A stretch of 64,000 nucleotides of DNA, taken from Octopus vulgaris (taxonomy: Eukaryota). The stretch's first letter is position 1. Each line of letters opens with the position of its first letter. This document shows positions 18,206 to 63,245 of the stretch, piece by piece. The notes beneath the pieces are model-generated. The model did no database searches and was not told the origin of the DNA. It was given only the letters and a program-made list of their open reading frames with translations. The stretch spans positions 27,404,001-27,468,000 of the forward strand of contig OX597827.1 of the NCBI GenBank assembly GCA_951406725.2, written 5' to 3'. The position numbers and the translations under genes were made by a program.

Positions 18206-18436
18206 TGAGGTATACTTGCCATCTCAGTATGGCTAACCACTAAGTGTGGGTGTTACTGTAGCTTGTAGCCCCAGGAGAACATCGTCTCCAGCTGGCTTTA
18301 GGCACACTTTCTGCTCCCTTATGGTATTTGCAAAGGGAGGTCATCCCTCCCTCGTCAACCTAAGTGATACGCACGGACTGCAGTTTCTAGGTATTGACCT
18401 GTCGTCGGCGTACGACAATCACCGGTTTTCGATGAA
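18206..18436 (-). mobile_element. retrozyme-like family B, part downstream of the Tx1 insertion
   Basis: Joins 23923-24102 across the TSD to give a 355-nt unit with 39-nt terminal redundancy (18206-18244 = 24064-24102); carries HHR. Confidence 0.8.
18364..18422 (-). ncRNA. type I hammerhead ribozyme (family B)
   Basis: Minus: gtgat-tgt-cgtacg-CCGACGA-c-aggt-caat-acct-a-GAAA-ctgca-GTC-cgtgcg-t-atcac; predicted cleavage between 18376 and 18375. Confidence 0.75.
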
Positions 18437-18897
18437 TTTATCTTTATTATGATCAAGTGATCTAACATAGAATTGGGACATTACAGGACAAAACAATTAC
18501 AAAAATGCTATGCGAGTTCGAATGAAATTATAAAAATTACCAAAATAAAATTTTATGTAACTTGAACGAAAACTTGGCTTACTTTGCCTTGAAACGAAAC
18601 CTTGGCTTACTTTTGCCATTATCACGAGAACGTTTAGTGCGTATGTTTTCTTTTTTTGTATTATTTCTTTATTTTAAACAGTTATGTACAGTGAAAGGGA
18701 ATGGGAGGTACCAGTTTCAATTTTGAACCCGGCAGCCTATAAATCCCAGCAGCTGATTTTTCCTTTCCTCGATGATTAAGCTGGGTTACTCTCACCCACC
18801 TTTCTCATCACATCCTTCCAACGTTCCATATACTCTTTCTGTGGCAGGCTCCTCTTCTCTAACCCCATCTTGCTCTTCAGATGATATCCGAAGTATT

Positions 18898-19512
18898 TTA
18901 ACAAACCGGGGCAGAGATAAAGGAACCTTTCACAAGACCTTCCAATCTAGTTCTCCATGCACACTCTTTCAATACTGCCACCGTACAGTAAAAACAAGCC
19001 TTACCTTCCTTTGAGAGTTCAGTTGGCGGTATCATCTTAATCATAGATCCAGCCGACAGCTGTACTCGTCCCAGATGCGACAACACGTGTTCCACGTAAC
19101 TTATCAAGCCTGACAGCTCCCGGCATTGTACAAAAGCGTGTTGAACGGTTTCATCGTCCAACCCACATCTTGGACACGTCGGTGGCACTGACATTCCGTG
19201 CCTGGATAACTTCTCGCGAACAGGTAATGCATTCCTATAGCACTGCCAGGTCAGGGATTTTTGATAATTATCCAAATACCCCGACCTGAAAGTCTTCTTA
19301 AACAGGTTGGAGAGTTGATCCTCATCGAACCCCAGAGCCCTTCCTAGGACGTCGTCATTTTTTCCCTCTACCAGCCCTTTATAGAACACCGAGGTGGTAT
19401 TCCCGCTGCCGGCCTTGCCCATCTTGTGGATCAGCCAGAGTGCCTGTCGGCACTCCTTCTGCCATGAAGTCAGGTTACGTCCTTTAATGAGACCGGGTGT
19501 AAATCCCTCCAT
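18898..19512 (-). pseudogene. Tx1 ORF2 C-terminus (zinc-binding zf-RVT), frameshifted from the RT ORF
   Basis: LTWQCYRNALPVREKL...CPRCGLDDETVQHAFVQC. Confidence 0.85.
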
Positions 19513-22153
19513 AGAGGCCGGTCGCGGTTAAGAATTCCTCTGCCAGCGAACTCCACACCTTATCATCCTCCAGGTAACACCAGAGGTGTCTCAGCCTCAA
19601 CGCATGCTTGCGCATCATTAGCCAAGGCATCCCCAGTCCACCCTTTAGCGGTTCCTGGCAACACACGGAGCGTCTCACAAGTGGCTTTCCTCCTTTCCAC
19701 AAAAAGCGGAAAAGGAGTCGTTCCAACTTGTTTAACCACGAATCGGGGCAAGGCACGACGGTCAGGCGGTAGGTGACGACAGAGGCTATAAACATCTGTG
19801 CCACCTCCGCCCTCCCTTTCAAGGAAAGATGCCTTCCGGACCACTTCCGTACTATAGCTTCTACCTCGCTCCAATTCTTCTCCGTCTGGGAGTCTGGACC
19901 AAACCAAACTCCGAGCAATTTTACAGGACCATCTGTACAGTGTCCAACAACACTGGACGGTATCGGCTTGTCCCTCCAGGTGCCGAGGCGCAAACCGATG
20001 GACTTATCCCGGTTAACTTTTGCTCCTGCCACCGCTTCGTATCTATGGAGAGCACCTGCTACCCTAGAGAGCTGTGTTCCGTTGGACACGATGATGGTGA
20101 CGTCATCCGCATAGGCAGAAACAGACTTACCGCATCCGATTTCATTAGGGTTGCCTCCCAAATTCTCCAGCTTCCGCAGCAATGGCTCAAGAGCCAAAAC
20201 ATACAAGAGCGGGGACAAGGGGCACCCTTGACGAACTGAACGCTTGATCGAAAACGGCTCCGTTAGGTAACCGTTTATCTGGACTGTGGACTTGATGCCG
20301 CTGTACATAGCTGAGATCCACCCGCAGAAGCCAGGGCCCAGCCCAGCCGCTTCGAGGACCGCCGCCAAGTACCGATGGTCTACCCTATCAAACGCTTTAC
20401 TTTGGTCTAAATGGACCAATGCCCCTCCTTTGCCGTCTAATTTCCCGACCCTATCTATAGTGTAGCGGAGAAGGTGAAGATTATCCTGGATCGGCCTGCC
20501 TGGGATTGCACATGTCTGTGCCTTCCCGACAAGTTTCTCCACGACAGCCGTCAGCCTTTTTGCTAACACCTTGGCCAAAATCTTAAACTCTACATTAAGT
20601 AGAGTTATGGGCCTATAATTACTAATACTGTCCCCCTTGTTCGGGTCTTTCTGGACAAGCGTCACAACTCCCCGACTCACAGAGCTGGGAATCCTCCCAT
20701 TCTGTTGCCAATTTGCATAGACGCTTGCCAGTATGTCCCCGAACAAGTCCGGCACAAAACAATAAAATTCATAGGGCAGACCATCCAACCCCGGCGACTT
20801 TTCCCCGGCGCACTCGGCCATAACCCTTCTTACCTCCGCGGGAGAGATCGATCCTTCACAGCACTCCGCCTCACCTGCCGAGAGCCGTGGCCCACCAGCT
20901 AGGAAGTCCTTTAAGGTCTCCCCACGCTCGAGCGGACCACCGCCTCCAAACAGCCGTGCGAAATGCTGGTGAAGGACCTTCTGCATCTCCTCCTGTCCAT
21001 AGATCTTGCGGTCCTGCTCGTCAGTTAAGGACATAATACAGGACTTTTTGCCCTTCTGACTCTCCCCACGACGGGCCCATCCGGCAACGTTAATACCTTC
21101 TCGTTTTCCTGCACGTAACTTAGCTCTGACTCTACACCCCTCATGCTTGGCGTTGAGGTGACGGTACAATACCGCTCTCGCTGCCAACACTCCGGATGCA
21201 CAGCCAGATTCCATAGCATCGTCTAAGTTCTTAACTAATTCGCCCTCTATTCTAGTCCTATCTAAACTTAGCTGCTTGCTAAATCTAATGGACTCCAAAC
21301 GGATGGCTCTTTTGAGGGCGATCCACCATCTATTACTAATGATGGCGCCACATAATGCCCTCTGTACTAATTCCTTAATCCGGGTACGGAAAGCTTCACA
21401 AGTCAAAATAGACTTGTTCATTTTCCAGTACCTGGGACCTTGTCTATGGCATTTATCTACATGTACCTCACACGTCACAAGTTTGTGATCGGTGTAAGGC
21501 ACAACAGAGAATTGTGGACAGCTAACACTATTCCTATCTCGTTCCTTAACAAATACTCTATCTATGTACGATCTGCGTGAGCCGTCGTTATTACTCCACG
21601 TCCACTGTGGAACGTTCGGCTCATCCAGTCGAAAACGGTCTACTAGATTAAAGCTCGCTAGTAGAGCCTTGAGGCCAGGATTCCCCTTCCTATCGCTCGA
21701 GCCTACACCATCCACCCGCGCATCGAGAATGGTGTTGAAATCCCCTACCAAGACTACCATTTTGGACGTCACTAGAAAGTGCTCCAGTTCCCTGAAAAGA
21801 ACGGTCTGCCCACGTCCATTAGGAGCGTAGACAGCCACCAACCTGAAGGACTGCTTACTCACGTGCGTCACATCTAGGACATCCAGCCTACCTTCTGGGT
21901 CCAGAAAGACAATACTTACCTGTAAGTCCAAGTTCTTCCTGAAAAGAACTGCCACGCCTGCACCTCCCTCCCGGCTAGGAGAAATAAATTTCTCGTAACC
22001 ATTGAGAAGTGGTGAGAACGCTTGGGGTCCTTTCATCTTGGACTCGGTAACAATAGCTACATCGATTCTATGTGAAATGAGGTCGTCCCGAAAACAAGCC
22101 TGTTTCCATTTCGATCCCATTCCACGCACATTTATACAACCTAACTTAATCAT
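19484..22153 (-). CDS. Tx1 ORF2: APE endonuclease plus reverse transcriptase
   Basis: INVRG, VTES, VYAP, GDFN, IDR, TDH (APE); KSPGLDG, YRPITLLN, DQSKAFD, QGCPLSP, YADD (RT). Confidence 0.93.
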   Translation of the reverse strand: MIKLGCINVRGMGSKWKQACFRDDLISHRIDVAIVTESKMKGPQAFSPLLNGYEKFISPSREGGAGVAVLFRKNLDLQVSIVFLDPEGRLDVLDVTHVSKQSFRLVAVYAPNGRGQTVLFRELEHFLVTSKMVVLVGDFNTILDARVDGVGSSDRKGNPGLKALLASFNLVDRFRLDEPNVPQWTWSNNDGSRRSYIDRVFVKERDRNSVSCPQFSVVPYTDHKLVTCEVHVDKCHRQGPRYWKMNKSILTCEAFRTRIKELVQRALCGAIISNRWWIALKRAIRLESIRFSKQLSLDRTRIEGELVKNLDDAMESGCASGVLAARAVLYRHLNAKHEGCRVRAKLRAGKREGINVAGWARRGESQKGKKSCIMSLTDEQDRKIYGQEEMQKVLHQHFARLFGGGGPLERGETLKDFLAGGPRLSAGEAECCEGSISPAEVRRVMAECAGEKSPGLDGLPYEFYCFVPDLFGDILASVYANWQQNGRIPSSVSRGVVTLVQKDPNKGDSISNYRPITLLNVEFKILAKVLAKRLTAVVEKLVGKAQTCAIPGRPIQDNLHLLRYTIDRVGKLDGKGGALVHLDQSKAFDRVDHRYLAAVLEAAGLGPGFCGWISAMYSGIKSTVQINGYLTEPFSIKRSVRQGCPLSPLLYVLALEPLLRKLENLGGNPNEIGCGKSVSAYADDVTIIVSNGTQLSRVAGALHRYEAVAGAKVNRDKSIGLRLGTWRDKPIPSSVVGHCTDGPVKLLGVWFGPDSQTEKNWSEVEAIVRKWSGRHLSLKGRAEVAQMFIASVVTYRLTVVPCPDSWLNKLERLLFRFLWKGGKPLVRRSVCCQEPLKGGLGMPWLMMRKHALRLRHLWCYLEDDKVWSSLAEEFLTATGLYGGIYTRSH

Positions 22154-22175
22154 CGAAAAGAATAAAATTATTTAC

Positions 22176-23694
22176 TCACGGTTGCGAGAGGGAGCCTGAC
22201 AGATTCCTTCTGCCTGTCTCCCCGCCACTCGCCGTTGCTGCTGGGCGTTTCACCGGCGTTGCCATCGGGCTCTGGGTTGGTGTGGCTGCCGGGCTGACGT
22301 ATAATTTCCCAGTTGTCACCTCCTGGGTGACATCCTTAATGAAGCCGGCTTTTACGAGGTCTTGTAAGATTTTTCCTTTCCATCCTTCTTCGCTGACCCT
22401 TGCATATCGCCACTCCGCTTCCTTCTCGGTCGCTTTGTAGTACCTGATCTGCGTACTTGCTTGCACAAATTTTACTGCTCTCTCGTTCCTTGTGGTGTAT
22501 GCTATAATTTTTTCATTGGGTTTAAACCCTTTTACAGTTGGGGTGGGGTTGTTAAAGTGCTGGCCTATAGATGTAGTACCGCCGGGGTGGGATTGGAGAA
22601 TATTTTTAATTTGTTCGTCTGCGTTGTTTTTTTTTGTTACGGGTGGGGAGTCAGGGGTGATGGATTTTTTCCTTTTGTTCGACACGTTCGTGAATTCCAT
22701 CTCCTTGTATATTTGTTTTTGTTGTATTAATTTCCTCCTCCTTTCCTTTCTCATTTTGCATTTCGTTCTTGTCTTCCTCCTTTTTGGAGTTCGACCTGTT
22801 TTTTTTTCCTCCTTGCTTTCGCCAGTCGTTACTTTGTTCTCCACTTTGCTGCTTTCTGCGTTCTTCACAGCGTTTTTTTTTGTGTGGGGGGCGTTGCCCG
22901 TATTATTTTTCTTTGTGCAAACGGAGCGAACGTGGCCCTTTTGCCCGCATTTAAAACATCTGGGCCTGCGTCCTTCCACCGTAACTCGTATGGAGTGCCC
23001 CTCCCCCACGAAGACTCTGTCTGGTAGGCTTTCCAACGTCGCATTTTCCGCCTGGATTAATCATCTCCAGCTGCTGGCCTCTCCAGGGTTTTGCACTTTT
23101 CCTCTTCATACTCAAAATTCTCAATTTTGATTCAACATCAAAAATGACCGCTGTTGCCGCCCATATCACGTCGTAGCCCCTTGGTATATCTTCTAGGGTC
23201 ACTTTTGCTGTTCTGCACCCTAAATATAAGGGTAGCAGTATTATATTCTCGTTTTTCAACGTTTGCGTCGAAATTTGCTTTGCTTCTTCCGCCGTCTCAA
23301 AATGCGCCTCCACTGTAGCGCTTCTTGCACATAGGTTGACATGACGAACTTTATTCCATATTGGTGCCATACACTTTTCGACCATTTCATTTTTTACGTC
23401 GGTCATTCGTTTTTCTTTTATATTGTACACTTTATAGGTGACCATTTTTTCCCTTATTGCCTGTATAGTCTCAGGGGGCGGTACCAATCGTGTTTCTTCA
23501 CCAATTTTTTGCACTAGCGGTCTGAACTTGAATAGTCTTTCCATTGACACCTCCATTTCTTCCACTTCGCCAACTACGGCGTCTGAAAGACTGGGTTTTG
23601 CCTGTGTTTCCTTTTGTTTAACAGTTGTTATACATTCTCCCATCTCGGGAAAGTCTATTTTTGAACTTAAGTCTAATTCCATATTAGACAACAC
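22176..23694 (-). pseudogene. Tx1 ORF1 (gag-like, CCHC zinc knuckle), split by a frameshift near 23040
   Basis: CFKCGQKGHVRSVC knuckle; two overlapping ORFs 22951-23694 and 22176-23036 directly upstream of ORF2. Confidence 0.8.
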
Positions 23695-23922
23695 AAACTT
23701 GCCACAAATGACAACAGAATTTTTATTTTCAAAAATAACGTATACAGGTTAAGAGTTCACACAGAAATTTTCTACCCCGAAGGGCGAAAATTACTGGGTC
23801 AAAAACAGTTCAACAATTATATTACGTGTAACACAACAAAGTAGACAAACGGAAACGAACTCACACAACGATTTGCAGCAACAGAAAAATATTTGATATA
23901 CTCCGAGGAAAAATTCAAAAAA

Positions 23923-24278
23923 CACCGGTTTTCGATGAAGGGATGTCCCAATGCAAATACTTTTATCGTTTTTCCAGTAACTTTTCGTCACTGATCTCCA
24001 AAAACTGTATGCAAGCAATAATAAATCTCTGAACGAGGTATAAACAGTAACTGCACGGCAATGTGAGGTATACTTGCCATCTCAATATGGCTAACCACTA
24101 AGGAAAAACGATAAAAGTATTTGCATTGGGACATCCCTCCAACGAAAACCGGTGATTGTCGTACGCCGACGACATGTCAATACATAGAAACTGCAGTCCG
24201 TGCGTATCACTTAGGCTGACGAGGGAGGGATGTCCTCTCTTTGCGAATACCATAAGGGCACAGAAAGTGTGCCTAAAG

Positions 24279-24279
<1 letters not shown>
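23923..24279. mobile_element. retrozyme-like family B: remainder of the interrupted unit (23923-24102) plus inverted partial copy (24103-24279)
   Basis: 24103-24279 is the reverse complement of the joined unit and shows the empty insertion site. Confidence 0.8.
24152..24210 (+). ncRNA. type I hammerhead ribozyme (family B, inverted copy)
   Basis: gtgat-tgt-cgtacg-CCGACGA-c-atgt-caat-acat-a-GAAA-ctgca-GTC-cgtgcg-t-atcac; stem II G-C to U-A compensatory change relative to the 18364 copy. Confidence 0.75.
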
Positions 24280-28831: not shown

Positions 28832-28996
28832 TATGATATGCAAATAAGAAATAAGAATGATAAAAGAAAATATGTCATGCATTTCATTAGCCTACGGCTG
28901 TTTCTGCTATAAAATGCAATGCACTCATAGTTGAATGCATGTGCGTCCCCTTGTAGCTTCATCGGAGCTTCAAGCATATACAATGTCGTTAATTCG

Positions 28997-29475
28997 TATA
29001 CAATATCATTAAAGGAAGAAATTCAAAATCTTACAGCTGTTTCCGGAATATCCCCGAGTATGGGATATTCCGTCATCAGAGACAAATAGGGAGAATGAGA
29101 ATGGTATATATCAATAAAATGATATGTCCGTGTCTTTTTCTTGGGATATCTTCTATATCAGGACCTTAACCCACATGGATACACGCAGGATTGCACCTAC
29201 AGATTTACACTCATGGATCTCAGCAGGATTGCACCTAAGGACTCATGCTTTGGTGTCTATAACTTCGGAAATTTGAACTATGAAATTTTATGCCTCTTTT
29301 TTCTTCTCTCTTTCCATCACCTTATTCTTTTACTCTCTACCTCTATGCTGTCATCTTAATATATACCATTCTCATTTTCCATATTTTTGCCTGATTACGG
29401 AATATCCCATACTCGAGGACATCCCAGAAACAGCTGTAAGATTTTGGATTTCTGTCTGTAATAATATTGTATATG
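28997..29475. mobile_element. inverted pair of Penelope-like pLTRs
   Basis: About 28997-29113 is the reverse complement of about 29357-29475; each arm holds an HHR. Confidence 0.75.
29028..29083 (-). ncRNA. canonical minimal type I hammerhead
   Basis: gtct-CTGATGA-cggaatatcc...ggatattccg-GAAA-cagct-GTA-agat; palindromic stem III; the partner copy at 29391 is mutated to CTGATTA. Confidence 0.85.
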
Positions 29476-29527
29476 ACTTAGGATGTTTGCCATGCCTTAC
29501 TGTTTGATGTCCTGTTTAACAACTACA

Positions 29528-37601: not shown

Positions 37602-37795
37602 CATGATAGACGGTTAGCTCCTACACGCATTTTTTTTCTCTCCTTGTTTCTTTTCTGTGTATCTTTCTGTCGAAGAGCGTAGGCTCGAAACGTAAAACAC
37701 TTGTTCTATTTCTATTCCTGAGCGCCATACTAATACATTTGTTTGTTTGCACTCCACCTGCCTTCGTCTTTTGTTTATTTTCGTAAACCTTCCCG

Positions 37796-37798
<3 letters not shown>
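37602..37798 (+). mobile_element. Penelope-like pLTR remnant; inverted partial copy at 39011-39111
   Basis: ttt-CTGTCGA-a-gagc-gtag-gctc-GAAA-c-GTA-aaa degenerate HHR; 3' part is the reverse complement of 39011-39111. Confidence 0.65.
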
Positions 37799-37831
<33 letters not shown>

Positions 37832-38036
37832 TAATAAATCTCTGAGCGAGGTATAAACAGTAACTGCTCTATAATATAAGCGGGATCAGCCATCTGAATG
37901 TGGCTAGGGACAGGGCGGGGGTGGGGGTGTTACTGATGCATTTAGCCCCAGGCGACTATCGACGTCACCAGAGAGCCGACACCATCACGGTGTCCTTGCT
38001 AGCCTGCAAAGGGAGATCAGCCCCACCGAAGATACG

Positions 38037-38095
38037 GATGCTACACACGGACCGGTTTCGAGGTATTTGCCTCTTGTCAGCGCATGGCAAGCACC
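38037..38095 (-). ncRNA. type I hammerhead ribozyme (family A, copy 1)
   Basis: Reverse complement of the motif at 38680-38738. Confidence 0.7.
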
Positions 38096-38679
38096 GTTCT
38101 TCGCTGAGGGACTTCCTGTACAGGCCAGATATATATAGATTTTCACAGTAACCACAGTCACTGGCGTAGAAAATCCGTTCGATAACAATAATAAATCTCT
38201 GAGCGAGGTATAAACAGTAACTGCTCTATAATATAAGCGGGATCAGCCATCTGAATGTGGCTAGGGACAGGGCGGGGTGGTGGGGGTGTTACTGATGCAT
38301 TTAGCCCCAGGCGACTATCGACGTCACCAGAAGAGCCGACACCATCACGGTGTCCTTGCTAGCCTGGAAAGGGAGATCAGCCTCACGGACCGGTTTCGAG
38401 GTATTTGCCTCTTGTCAGCGCATGGCAAGCACCGTTCTTCGCTGAGGGACTTCCTAAGGACACCGTGAGGCTAAATGCATCAGTAACACCCCCACCACCC
38501 CGCCCTGTCCCTAGCCACATTCAGATGGCTGATCCCGCTTATATTATAGAGCAGTTACTGTTTATACCTCGCTCAGAGATTTATTATTGTTATCGAACGG
38601 ATTTTCTACGCCAGTGACTGTGGTTACTGTGAAAATCTATATATATCTGGCCTGTACAGGAAGTCCCTCAGCGAAGAAC

Positions 38680-38738
38680 GGTGCTTGCCATGCGCTGACA
38701 AGAGGCAAATACCTCGAAACCGGTCCGTGTGTAGCATC
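38680..38738 (+). ncRNA. type I hammerhead ribozyme (family A, inverted copy)
   Basis: ggtgct-tgc-catgcg-CTGACAA-gagg-caaata-cctc-GAAA-ccg-GTC-cgtgtg-t-agcatc; palindromic stem III accggt. Confidence 0.7.
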
Positions 38739-38907
38739 CGTATCTTCGGTGAGGCTGATCTTCCTTTGCAGGCTAGCAAGGACACCGTGATGGTGTCGGC
38801 TCTTCTGGTGACGTCGATAGTCGCCTGGGGCTAAATGCATCAGTAACACCCCCACCACCCCGCCCTGTCCCTAGCCACATTCAGATGGCTGATCCCGCTT
38901 ATATTAT

Positions 38908-39014
<107 letters not shown>

Positions 39015-39111
39015 CGGGAAGGTTTACGAAAATAAACAAAAAACGAAGGCAGGTGGAGTACAAACAAACAAATGTATTAGTATGGCGCTCAGGAATAGAA
39101 ATAGAACAAGT

Positions 39112-49325: not shown

Positions 49326-49545
49326 TTACAGAATATATTGTAAAGTGCGTGGAAATATAAGTGATACACCATTAGCTACACGAAGATACAATTATCATTT
49401 GCCTCACGTAAATAGTCCCACAGCCATGGCGGTTTCAACGCCATGGCTGTGGGACTATTTACGTGAGGCAAATGATAATTGTATCTTCGTGTAGCTAATG
49501 GTGTATCACTTATATTTCCACGCACTTTACAAATATATTCTGTAA
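49326..49545. repeat. near-perfect palindrome, about 106-bp arms, 7-nt loop
   Basis: 49326-49431 is the reverse complement of 49439-49545; loop gtttcaa. Confidence 0.95.
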
Positions 49546-56588: not shown

Positions 56589-56745
56589 CTGATGAGACCC
56601 CAAGAAGACCATAAATTCTCTGATGAGACCCCAGTAAGAAACGAAATCTTTCTGATGAGACCCCAATAAGAACCGAAATCTTTATGATGGGACCCCAGTA
56701 AGAACCGAAAGTCTTCTGATGAGACCCCAATAAGACCCGAAAATC
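56589..56745 (+). repeat. 32-bp minisatellite x5 containing CTGATGAG...CGAAA
   Basis: Units start at 56589, 56620, 56652, 56684, 56716; consensus ctgatgagaccccartaagaaccgaaatcttt. Confidence 0.9.
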
Positions 56746-60039: not shown

Positions 60040-60984
60040 AGAGAGAGTAAGAGAGAGAGTAAAAGACAGAGTAAAAGAGCGAGTAAGAGAGAAAGAGATA
60101 GGAGCGATTGTAATCGACATCAACGTCAGAAACCCTACATGGTTTCTAAACCTGCTAGTAATAGCAAGCAACGAACATCTCAGTCACATCTAACGGTTTG
60201 AAATGAAGCACACATCGAACGATGAAATCAAGTGTCTATAAAAATATGAGGGAGACGGCCAAGGCTGGAAGTTCTTAATTACAAGTCTGTTTCCTCAATT
60301 AGGTCTAATCTCGGGCAGAATTTTCTTGAAAAATTCTTTGAAGTTTGGTGAAGAAAGGGTGGAGAAAGGAGACAGAGTGAAAAACAATGAGAGAAGAGGA
60401 GAAAATAGAGATACAGAGGGGTGGGGAGAAGGTCTGTAGAGTACAGTGAGTATATTTTTAATTATGTATGTTAAAATATGTATTAAATTTAATTAGATTT
60501 TATTTAGATTTAAGCTTGGGCCTAAAAGCCACATATTTATCCTTCTTCACAGACGTAATATTACCGGTCGCAGGCATTTTAAAAAAAATTAAGAATGCAA
60601 TTACAATATGTATGACTGAAAAAGTAATTATTCGTCTTTCCCCAACTCACTCTGTCACTGCCTTCTCTCATTCGCTCTCTACAGTATGTATACTCATACA
60701 AATATAAATACATACACACCCATGTATATCCAAACATGCATACAAACATATATACATCTACATTTACACACACACACATAAAAAAATATATATACATATA
60801 TATATACATATATATATATGTATATATATAGAAGGTAGCATATATAGACCCGGCCCTTCCGAAACCAGCATTCTATCATCAGGATAAGTCAAGTTACAAT
60901 AACATAAATAATATAAGTAGTGATGGTAGCCTGAGGAATGTCGATACAAGTACAACTAGCATAAATATAGATAACATAAATAAT

Positions 60985-62120
60985 TTGCGGTTCAGGGGAG
61001 GCCATTGTAGGCCAAAACCCATTATTCAACCCAGAGATGCCCACCTTAATGTTAGAGTTGACTCCCCGAGCCAGTACAAGAACAAGAAGAACTATATTTG
61101 GTTTGTAATTCTCTTTGGTAAACAAATAAGATCTAACCTACCGTTGCAGTTTCGCCAAGCAATTTCCAGAAATTTTCCCAGAAATTCGAGATATTACTCC
61201 ACTATAAATTCACACAAAGTTAGGATAGCCTTCTCCAATACTAAAAATCTTTCACAGATAATTTCCTCCCATAACAATAAGCTGCTAAATAAGACCCTCT
61301 CACCCATGAGCGGAGACTCTGCTCCGTCTAATTCCAACATAACACGCAGTAATAATAATAATGATAATAATAGAACTGGCACAGATATTAGCAACCACCA
61401 TACCAACATTGGAGTTAGTAATAGTAATAAGGATAAGAGCAATGATCTCGTCATTAATGTAAGTAATGGTAATAAGGATAAGAGCACTGATCTAGTCATT
61501 AATGTAGGGAGTCCCAACAATAATATTAGCAGCGGTTTTAACAACAGTAGTATTACGGACATTAGCAATCACAGCATTCACAGTAACAGGGAATATGCAG
61601 GTGATATTGCCTTAAATAGTTAATGATAATGGGGTGAATAATATCGAATCCAGCGGTAGTTCTTACAATCATCATAGTAATAAGAACGCTGTATTAATAT
61701 CGGAAACCAATCCCAATAGAATAAGGTTCTTATCTAGTAACTCCAAGATTAGAAACGCCATTTACCTAGTGCAGAGTTTATACTGATTCAGATGTCTACA
61801 TTTATATCGGAGCTTCATCATCGAAATTGGCTGTTAGAATATCGAATCATTTTTCCACGTTTCGTGATAAGGAAAAGCAACACGCTACGGGACTAAGTAA
61901 ATTAGTCTGGCGTTTGAAGAACGCGAATTCAACTTTTAGACTGGAATGGTCAATTTTATCGGTGTCTTTACCGTTTGATAAGGACAAAAAAATCTGTGCT
62001 CTTTGTAACTCGGAACTCTTTCATATTCTGTTCGCCCGAGGGCACCTTGTTAACTCGATTGTGCAAAATTCTTTCAGATGCCCACACTGGAAACGGCATA
62101 CATTTCTCTCATACCAATGA
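60985..62120 (+). pseudogene. Penelope-like element ORF C-terminus with GIY-YIG endonuclease (frameshifted)
   Basis: IWFVILF...YYSTINSHKVRIAFSNTKNLSQIISSHN linker; NAIY...YIGAS; RISNHFSTFR...LSKLVW...WSIL...CALCNSE. Confidence 0.85.
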
Positions 62121-63001: not shown

Positions 63002-63060
<59 letters not shown>

Positions 63061-63063
<3 letters not shown>

Positions 63064-63245
63064 TTTATTTAAAGCAGCAGAAAATTCAACAAAACCTGTT
63101 ACTCTGAGAAAAAACTGTCCGACGAACAGAAACGTGAAACTCAGAGTAACAGGTTTTGTTGAATTTTCTGCTGCTTTAAATAAAGCATATTACTCTACCA
63201 CTGGTATTTGAGTACTCTTTTTCCACCTTGTTTCACATTTATGTG
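63061..63245. mobile_element. fold-back Penelope-type pLTR remnant with hammerhead at 63115-63152
   Basis: 63063-63108 inverted at 63140-63185; ctgt-CCGACGA-ac-agaaac-gt-GAAA-ctcaga-GTA-acag. Confidence 0.7.

Follow-up and report, generated by a model that had tools for sequence, protein, structure and literature searches.

A near-invariant 39-nt block in octopus hammerhead repeats is likely a Penelope-like 'tail' and probably the signal at which a partner reverse transcriptase starts copying

The window analysed here is a 64,000-nt stretch of Octopus vulgaris DNA (contig OX597827.1, positions 27,404,001 to 27,468,000), which is AT-rich and microsatellite-rich and contains two insertions of a hammerhead repeat, A and B. 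Element A (37830-38908) is composed of ~357-nt tandem monomers and an inverted arm, with its 3' ends facing outward into (TA)n. Element B is interrupted by an L1/Tx1-like LINE of 5.5 kb, flanked by a 17-bp target duplication. Its left half (18207-18436, minus strand) comprises a tail-less end at (TA)n, the upstream conserved blocks, the body and a hammerhead, and its right half (23923-24279) contains an inversion at 24102/24103 and ends in (AC)n(AT)n. The LINE (18437-23922, minus strand) has endonuclease, reverse transcriptase (RT) and zf-RVT matches and a weak CCHC match; it enters B just 5' of B's hammerhead, with the target duplication at 18420-18436 and 23923-23939. Monomers measure 357 and 356 nt. 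Read along the hammerhead strand, each runs from the cleavage site through the body and the conserved blocks to the 21-nt spacer, the 39-mer and a bulged hairpin, after which comes the next hammerhead. The outer ends of each insertion are both 3' ends on this strand, and no ORF of 120 aa or more was found in A. Tandem monomers in the 150-400 nt range, one type I hammerhead in each and no coding capacity are the features of a non-LTR retrozyme or non-autonomous Penelope-like element (PLE), and the partial tandem with an inverted arm inserted in (TA)n, seen in both A and B, is likewise that of a non-autonomous PLE. An earlier reading, made from the sequence only, had treated A and B as two retrozyme families. 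The two are in fact homologous along the whole ~357-nt monomer and can be aligned end to end (241/370, 65% identity), and are therefore diverged subfamilies of one element.

Each monomer carries one minimal type I hammerhead whose helix III is palindromic, and these hammerheads lie on the minus strand, opposite to the strand previously given. The A hammerhead at 38045-38085 (minus) was recognised by sequence and fold. In B, a variant with the core CCGACGA is found at 18371-18413 (minus, fold z -2.5) and again in the inverted arm at 24161-24203 (plus), where the fold (z -0.5) does not stand out from shuffles. Between these two B copies, helix II shows a compensatory change. The A hammerhead copies in the window, including that at 38045-38085, carry a C3.A8 mismatch, and the family also includes U3 and G8 variants: in the sequencing runs described below, C3 is changed to U at 61-85% of depth and A8 to G at up to 38%. 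If phased as expected, these variants would restore U3-A8 and C3-G8 pairs. Two further run variants in stem I change G.U to A-U. Since it is on the minus strand that these variants preserve the hammerhead fold, minus is taken as the sense strand, and the variant pattern supports maintenance of a minus-strand ribozyme. The CCGACGA core recurs in several unrelated repeats of the window (18371-18413, 24161-24203, ~1507 and ~63119).

The block itself is a 39-mer for which the plus-strand copies at 24016-24054 (B) and 38186-38224 (A) are 38/39 identical, the sole difference being at position 18; direct comparison thus reproduced the identity reported in the sequence-only reading. On the hammerhead strand, both are internal tandem copies on the minus strand. 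Two further copies bring the total in the window to four: one in the inverted arm of A (38551-38589, a minus-strand match and therefore in plus-strand hammerhead orientation) and one starting at 37829 (plus-strand match, 2 mismatches), which marks the left end of A. No 39-mer match was found in 100 shuffled controls. The 39-mer is the best-kept part of the A/B element. In the monomer alignment it is kept better than the hammerhead, as had been claimed (36/37 versus 35/45), and the next-best 37-column window reaches 30/37. Identity in the other segments is 8/21 for the adjacent spacer, 16/18 for GCCAT..GGCTA, 7/20 for the loop, 22/27 for GGGT..CCAGG, 54/92 for the body and 63/97 for the linker. 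The conservation of the block has a binomial P of ~1e-4 after window correction at a background identity of 62%, and loses significance if the background is 75% or more; this letter-by-letter alignment rests on two independent insertions, A and B.

Protein-coding and polyadenylation roles were considered for the block and set aside. All three plus-strand frames meet stops inside it, and an open frame on the minus strand runs into a stop within the spacer of A and that of one further subfamily type. An AATAAA sits on the strand without the ribozyme, and the polyadenylation reading was therefore rejected.

Upstream of the block on the hammerhead strand lies the first spacer (24055-24075 in B, minus), inside which the tail-less insertion ends fall. 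Spacers had been described as variable, which for the first spacer holds in sequence (8/21) and not in length: it measures 21 nt in both A and B, and equally in the three additional subfamily types that loose ends reveal. It is followed by a conserved block containing the UAGCC and UGGC strands (24076-24093, minus, 16/18 to A). The motifs gggtgttactg and tagccccagg, which had been placed inside 24016-24102, are absent there, as the inversion cuts B's copy; they lie in B's other half at 18248-18258 and 18266-18275, and in A at 38284-38294 and 38302-38311. Read on the minus strand, the B interval (18248-18275) supplies the CAGUAAC and CCUGGGGCUA blocks, the 5' strands of a long helix and of the proposed pseudoknot. 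The corresponding conserved upstream blocks of A (38246-38311, minus) read GCCAT..GGCTA, GGGTGTTACTG and TAGCCCCAGG on the plus strand.

Copies of the repeat outside the window were analysed in contigs of 4 out of 24 public sequencing runs (X1, X2, X3 and X5, with three organism labels), mapped to 37975-38335 at 80% likeness; X1 is RNA by guess only and has no strand information. Summed depth in the bin 38196-38208 was 562141 (X2), 886398 (X3), 59818 (X5) and 1628 (X1), against a mean over three hammerhead bins of ~8800, 52300, 1720 and 84, respectively. Peak block depth relative to A's hammerhead was therefore 64x (X2), 17x (X3), 35x (X5) and 19x (X1), where contig depth is not copy number and 5' truncation also raises depth at 3' ends. 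The profile falls across the spacer, recovers to high values over 38248-38312 and drops after 38313. Among the 40 variants listed, none falls in 38186-38221 and nine fall in 38046-38091. The block is not wholly invariant, as one subfamily alters positions 35 and 37 (28-37 contigs, X2 and X3). B-type and other bodies are attached to the same block (59-102 contigs behind 38224, three runs), and the flanks before 38186 are heterogeneous (48-71 contigs, agreement ~0.5, three runs). No other part of the repeat family is shared as widely as the block. The sequence-only reading had allowed that, over many copies, the block might turn out to be conserved no better than the remainder; given the depth and variant patterns in the four runs, this is not the case.

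Insertion ends were found at either edge of the 39-mer. A's left end (37831-37867, minus) has 37 nt of the block directly against (TA)16, as established by sequence match, profile and alignment. The right end of A (38870-38908, plus) and the left end of B are tail-less, stopping ~3 and ~11 nt short of the 39-mer by eye and alignment. With a 78-nt profile in which the 39-mer occupies positions 1-39, the match at the left end of A starts at 3, and those at A right and B left start at 44 and 46. The two ends of A thus differ by ~40 nt, so that an extension of 30-40 bp is present at one end only, as is typical of a PLE tail; strand and end mapping also place the block at the 3' end of the hammerhead strand, where such a tail would lie. 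Three of the four ends in the window fit this arrangement. B's right end (24279, which corresponds to 18295) does not, being ~240 nt away from the block within the monomer. Among the loose ends listed from the runs, X2 had (TA)n at the inner as well as the outer site and X5 at the inner one: the outer edge of the block gave an (AT)n loose end (24 contigs, X2) and the inner joints at ~38227-38230 were joined to (TA)n in 3 contigs (X5) and 11 contigs (X2). The listed loose ends of X1 and X3 at 38245 showed no (TA)n. The tail-less joints coincide with AT-rich microhomologies, and because of this later slippage could mimic them. Moreover, A's right arm sits in a larger inverted repeat that takes in 131 nt of flank, so the arm may be a fold-back copy instead of an independent priming event.

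Other hammerhead-like repeats were seen in the window. One of them flanks A as a 98%-identical inverted pair (37660-37829 and 38981-39111), both 3' ends of which face the (TA)n that holds A, and has a relative at 1499-1668; double insertion, duplication during A's insertion and an assembly fold-back were considered as its origin. A different inverted hammerhead element (28990-29525) has a canonical core at 29079 on the minus strand, and one of its arms is ~45 nt longer before (AT)n, a possible tail that shares 9 nt (TTACTGTTT) with the tail described here. At 56589-56742, about five tandem 32-nt units starting with CTGATGA and ending near GAAA resemble stacked minimal hammerhead cores. Long near-perfect palindromes at 947-1149, 49326-49545 and 63060-63200 are probably inverted arms of other insertions.

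Crossing helices had been proposed for the module. The pairing is possible, and no two-sided compensatory change was seen in either helix. On the hammerhead strand, a helix is predicted between CAGUAAC and the GUUACUG of the tail (probability 0.45-0.8 in A), and CUGGG can pair with YUCAG in the tail, where the single A/B difference turns G-C into G.U. A GGCUA/UAGCC helix could cross the former; in B its UAGCC strand falls within an 8-nt loop closed by a 7-bp stem, and in A it competes with an equally conserved 6-bp hairpin. A RUGGCWR helix has all 7 of its pairs in B, 6-7 of them in B-like loose ends, 5 in a third type and 3 in A (counted partly by hand), and no single interior structure common to all subfamilies was found. 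The module folds no better than its shuffles (z -0.2 and +0.6, the former for A). RNAalifold on the two sequences was uninformative and chose to pair the tail-helix strand with the hairpin strand.

A bulged hairpin that was absent from the sequence-only reading lies ~10 nt 3' of the tail and repeats a near-identical 7-bp helix. Its lower stem is separated by a 5-nt bulge from an upper stem of CAGUGAC/GUUACUG, and the same architecture is found in B (23968-24005, minus) and A (38137-38176, minus). The z-scores, for stretches chosen after they had been seen, are -3.2 (A) and -3.4 (B), versus -1.5 and -1.2 on the other strand; energies are -12.9/-11.2 kcal/mol on the minus and -7.3/-4.2 kcal/mol on the plus strand. 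The upper stem is 14/14 identical between A and B around unrelated loops of 4 and 5 nt, and the lower stem differs by one A-U to U-A change. The run variants that fall in the upper stem alter its wobble pair and its closing pair. Against the hairpin stands a common change at 38174, for which no partner change was among the variants listed. Three small hairpins with G.U pairs on the plus strand had suggested a fold on that strand, which was set aside. The minus-strand fold is favoured because of the bulged-hairpin energies, the outer CUGGG/YUCAG helix and the hammerhead variants.

None of the Rfam covariance models reached its gathering score, and at E<=10 there were only generic hairpin and microsatellite matches, in scans that also missed the CCGACGA variant hammerheads. 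Exact-pattern scans of viral contigs and GTDB genomes returned no hits, and 65 metagenome loci with the pattern were dropped as none extends beyond chance (best 12/22 flanking letters). An autonomous element with RT and GIY-YIG domains that carries the block was found neither by motif searches of the PMC8557442 supplement (Octopus Naiad and Hydra consensuses, where line breaks could hide a match) nor elsewhere in the 64-kb window. A decayed PLE-like ORF at 60832-62100 (plus), beside (TA)n, resembles by eye the linker and GIY-YIG region of the Hydra clade; its first part had no Pfam match and it does not carry the module. The 39-mer was not found in a search of paper full texts or in the supplements of PMC8557442, PMC13282606 and PMC8967140, the literature listings searched included no description of octopus retrozymes, and the available portion of the O. 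vulgaris repeat paper makes no mention of ribozymes (PMC13282606). The element may already be catalogued in repeat libraries (Repbase, Dfam or the O. vulgaris library). It is a very abundant repeat in these genomes and has apparently no described boundary logic.

Published work on PLEs, in the portions available to us, offers a close match. PLE tails are 30-40 bp long and often present at one end only, and tandem and inverted insertions are described, in an arrangement (Fig. 2 legend) that is matched by A's tandem monomers and inverted arm with outward 3' ends in (TA)n (PMC8557442). Octopus Naiad and Hydra elements target (TA)n, and non-autonomous elements resemble autonomous ones at their 3' ends (PMC8557442). 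The tail corresponds to the stretch bounded by two RT start sites and, in D. virilis Penelope, was required for recognition by the endonuclease (EN); the minimal template reaches +172, past the main start at +111-118 (PMC11167929). Non-LTR animal retrozymes derive from PLE pLTRs (10.64898/2026.07.22.740005). Judged by its testable features, the octopus block is the PLE tail of a retrozyme that is PLE-derived and non-autonomous. The sequence-only reading had suggested an undescribed functional motif such as an RT recruitment signal. An RT signal fits; the block is not of an undescribed kind, because it coincides with a published optional 3' extension that is tied to RT initiation and endonuclease recognition. 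The 39-mer is therefore likely to be the known Penelope-like tail and is probably the signal by which a partner RT starts copying. With reasonable though far from complete confidence, we regard it as the optional 3' end of these (TA)n hammerhead repeats, kept near-invariant probably through recognition and initiation by the RT-endonuclease of a partner. Multimeric or hammerhead-released RNA would be bound in trans by the protein of an autonomous PLE, which would nick (TA)n and prime at an internal site. A start at the block's 3' edge would yield a tailed end and one ~40-50 nt further 5' a tail-less end, and the 7-bp CAGUAAC/GUUACUG helix, whose 3' strand lies in the tail, could form a structural part of the binding site together with the downstream hairpin.

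The tail might instead have been kept uniform by swapping or homogenisation among subfamilies, through template switching or conversion, and not through reading by a protein. The sharp step from 36/37 in the block to 8/21 in the adjacent spacer and the presence of at least five spacer types on one block are what such exchange would leave. We nevertheless hold it improbable, as the other blocks are kept as a patchwork of stems and loops (16/18, 22/27 and 14/14 in the upper stem), which points to selection, and as the block is present in internal tandem copies too. A simpler proposal is that the block is a functionless, slowly evolving patch of one repeat family that stands out by chance. Two independent insertions aligned letter by letter, and a P value that depends on the assumed background identity, leave some room for this, and we would give it little weight given the depth, variant and junction patterns across four runs and the coincidence of the block with insertion ends.

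The block's plus strand could also be read as a promoter, with TATAAA (at 24039 and 38209) at a fixed 21-nt spacing from the GCCAT block and transcription running antisense to the hammerhead. The invariant spacer equals two turns of DNA and pLTRs are thought to hold promoters (PMC11167929), yet this promoter would transcribe the strand without the ribozyme and would leave the insertion ends at both block edges unexplained, making it very unlikely. Also proposed was a second ribozyme, which here would be a pseudoknotted self-cleaving RNA of HDV-like topology on the hammerhead strand. The HDV consensus is a nested double pseudoknot with a 7-bp P1, P1.1 (CC/GG), the P3-L3 consensus and C-N-A-A in J4/2. 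The octopus strand order GGGGCUA..CAGUAAC..UAGCCAY..GUUACUG corresponds to that of HDV P1 and P2, and in B stems resembling P3 and P4 are present, as is a conserved C just ahead of the last strand. However, both A and B have a G.A mismatch at P1 position 2, and there is no GG for P1.1, no L3 consensus and no AA in J4/2; P3 and P4 are absent from A, and no Rfam ribozyme family matched the complete A copy at E<=10. With these core features absent, a second ribozyme is very unlikely.

The preferred reading, a PLE tail recognised by a partner protein, bears on how PLE RTs, the sister group of telomerase, select their templates and produce optional tails. Non-coding passengers are free of protein-coding constraint, and their conserved parts should therefore be the cis signal itself; here the candidate is narrowed to ~39 nt and two short helices. 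The block isolates a candidate RT recognition signal, and this is where its usefulness lies: it is a probe for finding the autonomous partner and links animal retrozymes directly to PLE machinery. The PLE protein is a predicted dimer, hammerhead cleavage is dispensable in vitro, and in vitro reconstitution has been achieved for one PLE (PMC11167929). More speculatively, and with the balance against it, the tail, the CAGUAAC/GUUACUG helix and the hairpin could together form the structured RNA docking site of a dimeric, telomerase-related PLE RT, with the GGCUA/UAGCC pseudoknot switching between start sites. If true, this would provide a natural, conservation-mapped footprint of PLE RT template choice and a portable mobilisation tag.

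In SINE-LINE pairs, the non-autonomous element keeps the 3' end of its partner as a mobilisation signal. The octopus block resembles this and the non-autonomous Chlamys PLEs, in which the partner's 3' end is likewise kept (PMC8557442), whereas initiation in octopus would be internal and at two sites. With HDV-like ribozymes the module shares the order of two crossing helices; it does not have the catalytic-core features and is not a member. As in non-LTR animal retrozymes, the octopus elements have tandem monomers of ~350 nt, one type I hammerhead and no ORF, the mussel monomers being 350-390 bp (PMC7229834; 10.64898/2026.07.22.740005). They differ from animal retrozymes in that their variant cores are minimal (U3/A8, C4) and that they carry inverted arms and optional PLE-like tails; the words 'tail' and 'octopus' are absent from the accessible text of PMC7229834. 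They also resemble PLEs, with which they share the partial tandem and inverted architecture and AT-rich or (TA)n targets, and their block matches the tail of D. virilis Penelope and of Poseidon from Anolis in length, in its 3' position downstream of the hammerhead and in its presence at one end only (PMC11167929; PMC8557442). The anole element initiates at an AC-rich site without target homology, and its main start is ~90 nt from the hammerhead cut, whereas the octopus joints are AU-rich with microhomology and the block lies ~180-220 nt from the cut. No such conservation or structure of the tail is reported in the available parts of PMC11167929 or PMC8557442. Unlike the Penelope and Poseidon tails, the octopus block resides in non-coding elements, is near-invariant across subfamilies that are ~65% alike, and is flanked by predicted twin 7-bp helices.
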